Below are positions 9,688 to 12,238 of a DNA stretch of 12,318 bases, in pieces. A program made the translations under genes and the position numbers. The stretch covers positions 1-12,318 of the forward strand of contig JBFMCE010000105.1 in the NCBI GenBank assembly GCA_040754655.1, written 5' to 3'. The stretch's first letter is position 1. Each line of letters begins with the position of its first letter. Source of the DNA: Bdellovibrionota bacterium (GTDB taxonomy: Bacteria; Bdellovibrionota; UBA1018; UBA923). The notes under the pieces are model-generated. The model saw only the letters and a program-made list of their open reading frames with translations. It was not told where the DNA came from and made no database searches.

Positions 9688-9764
9688 GGGCCCATAGCTC
9701 AGTTGGTTAGAGCTTCCGGCTCATAACCGGGTGGTCGCAGGTTCGAGTCCTGCTGGGCCCACCA
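9688..9764 (+). tRNA. ileX: tRNA with CAT anticodon, most likely tRNA-Ile2 (lysidine-modified)
   Basis: 77-nt cloverleaf with GGGCCCA/TGGGCCC acceptor stem, anticodon CAT at 9722-9724, GGTTCGAGTCC T-arm and encoded CCA. C4-G69 and C5-G68 (TilS determinants) are present, initiator features are absent, and the position after rpoD matches E. coli ileX. Confidence 0.93.
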
Positions 9765-11431
9765 TTTGTCAAGCTGTTCGAACCATGGAACGCAAGAAGA
9801 TTTGAATGTCTCGACAAATGGTTTTGATTGGCAAGGTCGGTTCCCGTGCCCGCAAGTGGCGGGCGGGAGCCGACCGAAGCCAGCTCCCTTTCGATGTGAT
9901 CTCTCCCAATCAGATATTCGAGTTTGAACCCGTCTTTAGTGATTTTGATTTGATGGATCAGAGTTTGGATGACTTTACTGCAAGCGATTTCATCTTTGGC
10001 GACCTTGGTCAGGCCGACCAAGAGCGTACGGTAGCTTGAAAGACTTGCGGGCATTTGCTGGAAACCCAATTCTCTTTCTAAGTGTCTGAGTCGCTGACCT
10101 TCCTCCTTTTTTATTGCTTCGATTTTCTCCATCTGACGGAACACGGGTTCAGCCGAAACATTCTTGGGGAGTTGGGCTAATCTCTCGGCAAGAACCTCAA
10201 GTTGTCCATTCAGAGAATTTATTTTCTCCCGAGTTCGTTTGAGCTCCGTATTTTGAGTGCGCTTTACGTGGATCTGATTTGCTTTTTCGAGGATGAGTTC
10301 GGCAGTGGCTGGATTTTTGATTAGGTCACCCACTTTCTCCCAGACAGTCGGCTCTAGTCTCTTTGCTTGGACTCGAAACGGTGAACAATTGAAGCACTTC
10401 TTTACAAGACAGCCCTCCCTCCTCGTAGCCCAACCATGTTCGTAGTACGGAACTTTGCCAGCATTTCCGTGTGCTGATTTCCCAACCATTCTCTCGCCAC
10501 AACTCTCGCAAGAGACAAGTCCTGTTAAAAGGAAGGGATACCGCTTTTCATTTTCAGGCTTTCTTTTTCGATTTCTTTTCAGGATTTCTTGCACACGGCA
10601 AAACGTCAGTTCGTCGATGATGGGTTCCCATGCAGCCTTGGTTTCTCTTTTTTCTCCTTTGACTTTGTAGATTCGAATTCCAAGATAGGCTTTGTTTGTG
10701 AGTAAGTCGGAGAGATTTTGAACCGTAAAATGACCAAGTCTTGGTTTGCTACCACCTCCCGATGTTTTTCGACACACTCTGTAATTGTTCGCATTGAGCC
10801 ATTTGGCTGCGTGACTGAGAGATTTCTTTTGGAGAAGTGTTTTGAAAGCCGCTTTTACGATCTCCGCTTGCTCAGGGTCAATCTCCAAGAAACCTCGCTT
10901 TTCGGGAATAAGTTTATAGCCAATGGGCAATACCCCTCCGTTGTAAAGGCCGCGGGCTGCCCTTGTTTGAAAATGCGCAGCCACTCTTTCGGAGACTTGG
11001 CGTCTTTCAAACTGAGCAATGTTGGCAACGGTGTAGAGAACCATTTCTCCTGCCGCTGTTGTCGTGTCGAAGTTTTCGCGGAGACTCATGAATTGGCAGT
11101 TACACGCCTGCATCAGTTCCCAAATCGATGCGAAGTCTTTGATGGATCTCGAAAGCCTGGAAAGTTCAGTGACCATCACTAGACTGATTTCTCGTCTCCT
11201 AATGGCCGAGAGCATTCTTTGAAGTTCTGGCCGGTTCGTATCTTTTCCGGAACGGGCTCGATCAATAAAAACGTCAGAGACTTCTCCAAAAGAAGATTCT
11301 CCATTTTTGAAACGAATCATCTCCCGGAGTCGTTCCTCTTGGTTCTTGATCGATCCTTCCGGATTCTCTGCCTGTTCCTCAGTCGAAACGCGAATGTAGA
11401 GCGCAATTTTGTGAGCGATGGATTTACTCAT
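9707..11431 (-). CDS. Large serine recombinase (resolvase + recombinase + zinc-ribbon/coiled-coil), 574 aa
   Basis: ALYIRVSTEEQ (catalytic Ser), SGKDTNRPEL, LSRLSRS, AQFERRQVSER, G...GG..PIGY, LLTGLVSCESCG, then a coiled coil. Start moved to ATG 11431 (AAAGGAGG RBS). The TAA stop lies in the tRNA D-loop antisense. Confidence 0.93.
   Translation of the reverse strand: MSKSIAHKIALYIRVSTEEQAENPEGSIKNQEERLREMIRFKNGESSFGEVSDVFIDRARSGKDTNRPELQRMLSAIRRREISLVMVTELSRLSRSIKDFASIWELMQACNCQFMSLRENFDTTTAAGEMVLYTVANIAQFERRQVSERVAAHFQTRAARGLYNGGVLPIGYKLIPEKRGFLEIDPEQAEIVKAAFKTLLQKKSLSHAAKWLNANNYRVCRKTSGGGSKPRLGHFTVQNLSDLLTNKAYLGIRIYKVKGEKRETKAAWEPIIDELTFCRVQEILKRNRKRKPENEKRYPFLLTGLVSCESCGERMVGKSAHGNAGKVPYYEHGWATRREGCLVKKCFNCSPFRVQAKRLEPTVWEKVGDLIKNPATAELILEKANQIHVKRTQNTELKRTREKINSLNGQLEVLAERLAQLPKNVSAEPVFRQMEKIEAIKKEEGQRLRHLERELGFQQMPASLSSYRTLLVGLTKVAKDEIACSKVIQTLIHQIKITKDGFKLEYLIGRDHIERELASVGSRPPLAGTGTDLANQNHLSRHSNLLAFHGSNSLTNGGPSRTRTCDHPVMSRKL
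9740..9784. other. Putative hybrid attachment site (attL/attR) of the serine recombinase
   Basis: Inverted pair GGTTCGA (9740-9746, tRNA T-arm) and TCGAACC (9778-9784, element side) flanks the tRNA 3' end within a 45-bp span. Confidence 0.5.
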
Positions 11432-11636
11432 GTGTACCAGTCCTCCTTTGAGCGGGTTCGAGGTTGCTTGGAGAAATACCGGCATTAATAGGTTTGGCTT
11501 TGATTTTGGATCTGTCGAGCTGGCAAAAAAGATCATAGAGGACTTCTGCCAGTTCTGCAATTCGTTGATTGTATTCGTCTTGGTTTATAGTCATAGGAAT
11601 GCATTGAATGATTTGGGGTTTCCATCCCTTTCTCAT
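11424..11636 (-). CDS. Small hypothetical protein (70 aa) coupled to the recombinase
   Basis: GGAG RBS 6 nt before the ATG. 8-nt overlap (ATGAGTAA) with the recombinase start. Amphipathic helix EYNQRIAELAEVLYDLFCQL. Confidence 0.65.
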   Translation of the reverse strand: MRKGWKPQIIQCIPMTINQDEYNQRIAELAEVLYDLFCQLDRSKIKAKPINAGISPSNLEPAQRRTGTHE

Positions 11637-11787: not shown

Positions 11788-12117
11788 TCATGGATTTAGC
11801 GAAGAATTGCCGTGCTTAAAAACTGGCCACTTACATCGAACACTGTCTGGTGAAATTCCCATCCGTATTCTGCCATGCTTCGTCAGTTGGAAACCCCAGC
11901 CTAGAAAAGGGGTTCGATAGAAAAAGCGAACAAGTTTCATCTTCTGGAGAATTCTCATTCTCCGAAAATGATGATGGTTGTTCTTTCCAGGCCAAAACGC
12001 TTGCCTGATTTTTTCGTAGTTTGGATGCGTTTGTGTGGCAATGAATTCTAAAATTCGGAGATCGCGCTTAGTCAGTCTGTGTCGCATGAGACGGGAGTTG
12101 ATCTCCAGTAGTTCCAT
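11788..12117 (-). CDS. Small basic winged-helix protein resembling the N-terminal domain of Replic_Relax proteins (109 aa)
   Basis: LTKRDLRILEFI...IRQAFW...RRMRILQKMKLV...FQLTKHG pattern. ATG 12117 is preceded by GGGAAGGAG and preferred over 12144. Confidence 0.6.
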   Translation of the reverse strand: MELLEINSRLMRHRLTKRDLRILEFIATQTHPNYEKIRQAFWPGKNNHHHFRRMRILQKMKLVRFFYRTPFLGWGFQLTKHGRIRMGISPDSVRCKWPVFKHGNSSLNP

Positions 12118-12238
12118 ATGAAATCTCCTTCCCAAACCTTTCATCTCGGTTCTCGGGTGGATCGTAAAAGCAATCTAAGGGCCAAAGGGCTAGCTTTGAA
12201 AAAAGTTGAATGATTTCAGCAAAAGCCTTATTCCGGGG

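Follow-up and report, generated by a model that had tools for sequence, protein, structure and literature searches.

A mainly Bdellovibrionota clade of large serine recombinases that probably integrates at the 3' ends of tRNA genes

The window is a whole contig of 12,318 bp from a Bdellovibrionota bacterium (JBFMCE010000105.1, assembly GCA_040754655.1; C105 of genome G000). In it, a tRNA-Met gene overlaps the end of an integrase gene on the opposite strand, and the T-loop motif of the tRNA recurs, inverted, in the integrase tail. tRNA genes are classic targets of tyrosine integrases. The integrase at this locus is predicted to be a large serine recombinase (LSR), and the question is how an enzyme of this type would recognize and use a tRNA end. 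Positions given here are those of the window or are counted relative to the A of the tRNA CCA, which is position 0.

Positions 9735-9785 are probably the left attachment site (attL) of a small integrative element. The LSR that would mobilize it belongs to a clade whose members come mainly from Bdellovibrionota. The host would contribute the 3' end of tRNA-Met as its half-site, starting with the T-loop and running to the end of the acceptor. The element half-site would start at about 9759-9761 and give ACCA followed by GTCAA-N5-TCGAACC. Because the element supplies ACCA, the tRNA would be restored. Strand exchange is placed at the 2 bp at -5/-4 (9759-9760), or at the least inside -5 to 0. The reading draws on the adjacency of tRNA and integrase, the conservation of the element arm, the far-end (attR) sites, a common symmetry centre, and an open reading frame (ORF) that spans the element's own site (attP), all documented by sequence comparison. 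The parts of the site are as follows.

9688-9764, plus strand: tRNA-Met(CAT) with encoded CCA (ARAGORN; Rfam tRNA, 72.8 bits); its 3' part would be the host (B) half-site.
9740-9746 (-24 to -18), plus strand: T-loop motif GGTTCGA, proposed from its geometry as the zinc-ribbon-domain motif of the B half-site.
9759-9760 (-5/-4), no strand: putative crossover dinucleotide CC, tRNA positions 71-72, placed by the attP symmetry centre, the left edge of the identity blocks, and the boundary between elements L056 and L057.
9758-9766, no strand: 9-nt block CCCACCATT, a short direct repeat common to the window and a candidate attR on contig C188.
9761-9785, plus strand: element-side P' half-site, conserved behind CCA in 57 loci.
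9707-11431, minus strand: LSR gene in its integrated form (Pfam, translation).

The P' half-site is composed of ACCA (the discriminator and the restored CCA), TTT, GTCAA (9768-9772), five variable nucleotides, and TCGAACC (9778-9784), which lies at +14 to +20 past the CCA end. An earlier note on this DNA had described GGTTCGA at 9740-9746 and TCGAACC at 9778-9784 as mirror images about 9762, and a sequence check confirms both the positions and the symmetry. Translation of the minus-strand ORF also agrees with its reading of TCGAACC as Gly-Ser (GGT TCG) in the integrase tail. Measured from the putative crossover centre, GTCAA occupies positions 9-13, TCGAACC 19-25, and the T-loop GGTTCGA 14-20. 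The excised attP would be an imperfect palindrome of ~50 bp bounded by GGTTCGA and TCGAACC, both 19-25 from the centre. The T-loop would offer the same 7-mer 5 bp nearer the centre, which is the difference between attB-type and attP-type geometry in LSRs.

By its predicted domain architecture, the window enzyme is an LSR. It matches the Pfam families Resolvase (PF00239, 1.6e-33), Recombinase (PF07508, 3.6e-17), and Zn_ribbon_recom (PF13408, 6.6e-07; 30.1 bits against a cut-off of 25.3). The nucleophilic-serine region reads YIRVSTEEQ; S16, R14, and Y12 are invariant in alignment A1, as are C308 and C311. The ORF spans 9707-11560, the conserved protein starts at 11431, and past the core the reading frame ends in ~17 codons of tRNA antisense.

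Of 8000 candidates scored, 1498 are relatives of the integrase at E <= 0.001. In species-representative genomes, a scan yields 80 loci, nearly all in Bdellovibrionota metagenome-assembled genomes. In 50 of these there is exactly one tRNA, which in every case adjoins the 3' end of the integrase gene and lies on the other strand. Among the other 30, several contigs end at the integrase and three loci are distant Firmicutes LSRs. The tRNA-abutting loci analyzed here number 57 and are made up of genome-scan loci, the window, a paralogue on contig C24 of the same genome, three family relatives, two metagenome hits, and a second copy in genome G001. Together they cover 21 tRNA isoacceptors. Islands of this clade measure about 3.5-34 kb. 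Viral contigs carry distant LSRs only, with the best relatives at most 42% identical over the best segment. A further LSR, ~23% identical to the window enzyme (L130, G010:C104), adjoins tRNA-Met and has GCGAAC at +12 to +17; the habit of targeting tRNA ends thus extends well beyond the close clade.

The earlier note had expected TCGAACC at a fixed distance after CCA beside homologous recombinases, and the motif is conserved there across the 57 loci. The consensus directly after CCA is TTTGTCAA-N5-TCGAACC. CGAA is found at +15 to +18 in 44 loci, TCGAAC at +14 to +19 in 34, and the complete TCGAACC at +14 to +20 in 22. Conservation stops after TCGAACCA, past +21 (alignment A2), and the GTCAA and TCGAAC blocks are ~10.5 bp apart. 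Ser and Gly codons are degenerate, yet their third bases, at +15 and +18, are the same in 50/57 and 53/57 loci. The arm is also kept in relics without an integrase, e.g., in G014 and at the tRNA-Ser of contig C1 in the window's genome. The fixed third positions and the arms of these relics indicate a constraint on the DNA and not on the protein. Locus L223, with a P'-like arm and no integrase, was taken to be a relic and left out.

All 41 tRNA genes of the window's genome encode CCA. The reverse complement of the gene's own T-loop 7-mer lies no more than 60 nt downstream in 4 of the 41 and exactly at +14 in three, on contigs C105, C24, and C1. An LSR paralogue adjoins two of these three, the window tRNA-Met and the tRNA-Arg(TCT) of C24, and the two enzymes are 63% identical. 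The third, the C1 tRNA-Ser(CGA) site, looks like a relic without integrase. CGAAC(C) at about +12 to +20 with no detectable LSR is seen at this C1 tRNA-Ser(CGA), at tRNA-Leu on C8 and C95, and at tRNA-Lys on C130, where an ORF resembles the C-terminal part of the integrase P0061. These LSR-less sites are probably relics or distant family members. A third LSR paralogue, on C139 (L010), adjoins tRNA-Arg(TCG) and is interrupted by insertion sequence (IS) transposase genes. A 19-20-nt copy of the 3' end of the same tRNA-Arg(TCG) lies on C191 (L243), beside another transposase.

Far ends were sought by exact words, by comparison of elements, and by the geometry of the site. The exact-word search, with words of at least 11 nt from tRNA positions -32 to +4, covered 616 kb, in which chance would give ~3.8 11-mers and ~0.01 15-mers. 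It returned repeats of 15 nt in G004 (34.3 kb away) and G001a, 12 nt in L065, and 11 nt in L017 and L062. Left of these repeats, GGTTCGA or GTTCAA starts at -29/-28, 5 nt beyond the T-loop distance. The L056 element in tRNA-Phe and the L057 element in tRNA-Ala are ~80% identical. Their similarity sets in at -5 beside the tRNA (attL) and continues to position 0, the A of a CCA 8.5 and 10.6 kb away; left of -5 they have nothing in common. An end of similarity at ~7 kb was rejected as the element end; the true end is a 180-nt block that ends at CCA. Similarity likewise stops at CCA in the second element-end copy of G001. An identical 53-nt element end occurs in that genome at L097 5787-5839 and L241 1478-1530, 275 kb apart, and the L241 copy has no integrase match nearby in the stretch examined.

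The locus-specific search combined the mirror image of P' at -29 to -13 with the tRNA end. Its best match in the window's genome is C188:466-495, GGTTCGACCAGGATGGCGTAGCCCCCACCA, the candidate attR of the window, behind which lie host-like GST, Tag, and TetR genes. On the expected strand, a position weight matrix (PWM) built from 14 arms gives 15 hits at a threshold of at least 14 bits, and on the opposite strand a single hit of 14.5 bits. Two of the expected-strand hits, at 23.6 and 26.7 bits, are new sites outside the training set. In all, 16 attL/attR pairs are composed of 15 related elements and the window candidate on C188; the attR sites of G004, L017, L062, L056, and L057 are independent of the symmetry search.

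Other searches for far ends gave little. Repeats of 22 nt of the tRNA end, or inverted P' copies, were found within 10-kb flanks in L050 only, and 16-24-mers of the tRNA end were absent from six regions of 21-61 kb. Inverted CCA+P' copies with up to 7 mismatches matched at chance level only. A generic GTTCRA-N-CCA scan gave an unclear signal, in which offset 20 on the expected strand had the highest count (13), a modest one, and a genome motif scan with 2 mismatches was too noisy. A candidate site on C115 was dismissed for its lack of CCA. Synteny did not locate the far end of the window's element, as sequences downstream of the relatives' tRNA-Met matched contig middles only. No empty site for the G001b flank was found in 61 genomes. 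Among sequencing runs, one was found, with 0.05 of the words.

Over the 16 pairs, the summed 7-mer match is 104/112 at -24 (tRNA), 93/112 at -29 (P arm), and 106/112 at +14 (TCGAACC in P'). The modelled attP sites are imperfect palindromes of ~50 bp with distal motifs, as in LSRs. Centred at -4.5, they have 190/320 complementary pairs versus 49-113 at 20 other centres, and -4.5 is the best symmetry centre in 16/16. The 50-bp attP of G004 has 15 of 17 outer pairs complementary. Blocks of identity between attL and attR span 6-15 nt and include -5 to 0 in all 16 pairs; their left edge is at -5 in six and never further right, their right edge lies between 0 and +4, and -5/-4 is identical throughout. 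The crossover that the earlier note put near 9759-9760 coincides with the modelled centre and with the left limit of these blocks, which would place it at -5/-4. The blocks also bear out the very short duplication it had foreseen.

Published LSR sites show the same spacing. According to the available text of Rutherford 2013 (PMC3783163), the zinc-ribbon domain (ZD) motif sits at 16-24 in attP and 11-19 in attB, and a helix of the recombinase domain contacts DNA at positions 9-13 in the LI structure. In that numbering, GTCAA falls at 9-13, TCGAACC at 19-25 in both P and P', and the T-loop at 14-20 in B. The 5-bp outward offset proposed in the earlier note for the element arm is found as GGTTCGA at -29 in the P arm against -24 in the T-loop, and fits the Rutherford 2013 rule. 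By this geometry, the zinc-ribbon domain would be the part that reads the T-loop motif. The T-loop and CCA are universal, and host sequence past CCA is not recognizably read; such an enzyme could therefore land in many tRNA genes and leave repeats of 6-15 nt. In G005 and L035, a further P'-like arm follows attR, which suggests the stacking of elements on an intact B arm.

The attP lies inside the integrase ORF, so that integration detaches a C-terminal module. In the modelled excised form, the ORF extends 52-100 codons past the core in 15/15 elements with an intact gene (the gene of L026 is broken), and in the integrated form 0-35 codons. The extra peptide is conserved, with W, DLxELAxLRW, and LAxxFGxS. 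A profile of the module gives weak matches in PDB to helix-turn-helix (HTH) regulators, with E from 2e-4 to 0.1, and its AlphaFold model has three helices with pLDDT 82-87. Foldseek returns no match at E <= 0.001, its top rows (E 0.1-1) being HTH DNA-binding domains, and no Pfam family matches the module. The full-length form is on record as one contiguous protein, P0086 (658 aa), and P0061 is probably another of this kind. Integration would thus exchange a conserved HTH-like module of ~50-100 residues for a short tRNA-antisense tail, and this loss may be a built-in switch. A broader proposal, offered tentatively and with rather less than even confidence, is that the clade, phylum-wide, uses universal parts of tRNA genes (the T-loop as zinc-ribbon motif, and the acceptor end with its CCA as core) as a one-armed attB, which would make nearly every tRNA gene a usable target, and carries attP inside its own gene, with integration cutting off the C-terminal DNA-binding module and so altering the enzyme, as a factor-free directionality switch.

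Several observations weigh against the attL reading and its extension. Ten of the 16 attR sites come from the search that assumed mirror placement about -4.5 and a tRNA-end match, or from a matrix made of such hits, so that the symmetry and the identity blocks are partly built in. The window candidate lies on a separate contig, C188, without physical linkage. The candidate C-terminal exon of the window integrase on that contig (L242, 275-545) is frameshifted, with VEYRLQW...ELAD in one frame and REGWSITRLSKHF... in another, which could be decay or an assembly error. The T-loop reads GTTCAA in 24/57 targets while the element arms mostly keep TCGAAC. Host B' arms have no TCGAACC-like motif at any offset (maximum 37/112 over 16 sites); the 5-bp inward shift of the ZD motif seen in LSR attB sites is present in the B arm (-24 versus -29) and has no counterpart in B', and attB is thus not a canonical two-armed site. 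Longer T-loop-to-CCA fragments, in L050, on C191, and in G014:C102, are not accounted for by the model. Finally, -5/-4 is palindromic GC in 4/16 attachment-site pairs and 16/57 loci. LSRs need a non-palindromic core for polarity, and a palindromic core should abolish polarity in a canonical LSR.

The GC cores bear on where the strands are exchanged. Exchange could instead occur at CC or CA of the universal CCA (-2 to 0), with the arms bound asymmetrically; both dinucleotides are non-palindromic and present in every target, and the identity blocks and the L056/L057 boundaries permit any position in -5 to 0. This is improbable, as only 72 and 56 of the 320 pairs are complementary about centres -1.5 and -0.5, compared with 190 about -4.5, and the attP arms would then be 6 bp out of register, unlike the LSR sites described in the available text of PMC3783163.

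Less probable still is a crossover in the T-loop, as in the islands of T-loop-targeting tyrosine integrases. The element would then carry the tract from T-loop to CCA, and TTTGTCAA...TCGAACC would not be a half-site. Tracts of this kind exist: 26 nt at 4105 nt from the tRNA-Ala in L050, 19-20 nt on C191, and 21 nt in G014:C102. However, tRNA-end repeats reach 16 nt in none of the six regions of 21-61 kb, and in most elements the repeats are only 6-11 nt long. In L050 itself, the 26-nt fragment is preceded, at a distance of 75 nt, by a P arm with CCA. The absence of shared sequence left of -5 between the ~80% identical elements in tRNA-Phe and tRNA-Ala also speaks against it, and a half-site fits two conserved blocks, one helical turn apart, right after CCA. 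A tyrosine island would be expected to have a tyrosine recombinase beside the tRNA and a long displaced tDNA fragment, whereas the adjacent gene here is an LSR and the repeats are 6-15 nt. The longer fragments could stem from tyrosine-recombinase islands stacked at the same tRNA; L222 is an example of such stacking, with a longer fragment left in place. Positions 1-2090 of L222 hold a tyrosine-recombinase-like ORF (416 aa) and a 32-34-nt tRNA 3' fragment directly left of the P' arm and the LSR. In L133 (G014:C102), positions 1575-1865, a unit of ~182 nt follows tRNA-Arg(TCT) and restarts after the 21-nt tRNA-end copy. This unit is made up of a P'-like arm, a G+C hairpin, and a spacer, and may be a tandem miniature derivative or an assembly loop at the contig end.

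That TCGAACC is a chance match, or is kept merely as Gly-Ser code in the integrase tail, is very hard to credit: it is a single 7-mer in frame in the integrase ORF, but only 28/20000 mononucleotide shuffles of 9765-9824 contain it, it recurs at a fixed offset in 22-44 of the 57 loci with its degenerate third positions held, relics without integrase retain it, and its mirror image returns at -29 in the P arms.

A tree of 49 integrases was built after removal of 5 of the 54 rows, which were short or broken, and of the final 45 residues; with 20 tRNA states, it requires at least 29 changes of target. Sister pairs with different tRNAs include L056 (Phe)/L057 (Ala), with end branches of 0.03, L021 (Leu-GAG)/L024 (Leu-TAA), G003 (Met)/L062 (Val), and the window (Met)/C24 (Arg). 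The use of many tRNAs and the switching among them, both proposed in the earlier note, agree with this count and with the 21 isoacceptors, and its interpretation is largely supported by the sequence comparisons. Targets also cluster on the tree, with one Leu clade and one Ala clade, and the inner part of the P arm is often similar to the acceptor strand of the tRNA in which the element resides. Specificity is thus partial, not absent.

Known systems share single traits with this clade. Williams reportedly described tyrosine-integrase islands in tRNA genes in 2002. SSV1-type archaeal integrases have attP within their gene, which integration splits, and the integrated and excised forms encode different proteins. 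These are tyrosine recombinases of archaeal viruses, whereas the enzyme here is a serine recombinase that would lose only a C-terminal HTH-like module. The Ccr enzymes of SCCmec are LSRs that insert at the 3' end of a conserved gene, which is preserved, with a repeat of about 15-18 bp. Their target is a single protein-coding gene (rlmH), in contrast to a set of tRNAs.

The tyrosine-integrase tRNA islands of Islander/TIGER, as far as the available text of Hudson 2015 (PMC4383910) describes them, likewise restore the tRNA 3' end, have the integrase beside an intact tRNA, and stack in tandem. They differ in having an enzyme of an unrelated family and long tDNA fragments in place of repeats of 6-15 nt. 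The same text states that serine-family integrases were not known to target tDNAs. Hackl 2020, in the portion available, notes that a minority of the elements at tRNA-linked islands have large serine recombinases, and gives no site analysis. The A118/LI-type LSRs of Listeria, in the available text of PMC3783163, have the same three-domain enzyme, a palindromic attP of ~50 bp with distal motifs of 7-10 bp, a host-side motif 5 bp nearer the centre, short identity between the sites, and matching P, P', and B arms. The present clade differs from A118/LI logic in four respects: it targets tRNA 3' ends, only one host half-site is recognizable (a one-armed attB), many tRNAs are used, and attP lies inside the integrase ORF, so that the gene is split. 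Its islands are also those of Bdellovibrionota and not known phages. Multi-targeting LSRs that use more than one genomic site were described by Durrant et al. 2022 (PMC10083194), in whose available text 'tRNA' has 0 occurrences; here, the multiplicity would come from a universal feature of a structural RNA gene. In the literature searched (subscription journals not covered), no tRNA-end serine-integrase family is described, nor one whose gene spans attP.

Should the enzyme indeed read the T-loop motif, frequent target switching would have a simple explanation. There would then be a class of small islands with 6-15-nt repeats that is missed by repeat-based island finders, and cofactor-free integrases with a landing site in every genome. 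The split integrase gene would make the long-standing question of direction control in serine integrases directly testable.

Three further features lie in the element.

9799-9821, plus strand: second CCA+P' copy, inverted and degenerate (GATTTGAATGTCTCGACAAATGG), with 17/23 matches; 0/200 shuffles are as good.
9835-9875, no strand: G+C-rich hairpin in the tail of the integrase ORF; fold z = -7.4 for 9761-9885.
11788-12144, minus strand: 118-aa ORF of the element with no family match.

The inverted copy begins 14 nt after P' and on the plus strand forms a hairpin that is followed by TTTTGATT. It is present only in the window's family (the window and, more clearly, L124 with 20/23 matches, L131, and L116); 50 other loci lack it. 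Since its arms stand tail to tail, it is not a normal crossover site. An Rfam search with the hairpins gave nothing credible. The C24 paralogue keeps the inner stem and the loop of the strong hairpin at 9835-9875, and its outer stem pairs despite a different sequence. Up to tRNA-Met, the window holds host genes, namely the iscS/iscR region, dnaG, and rpoD, and tRNA-Met lies downstream of rpoD in the relatives as well.

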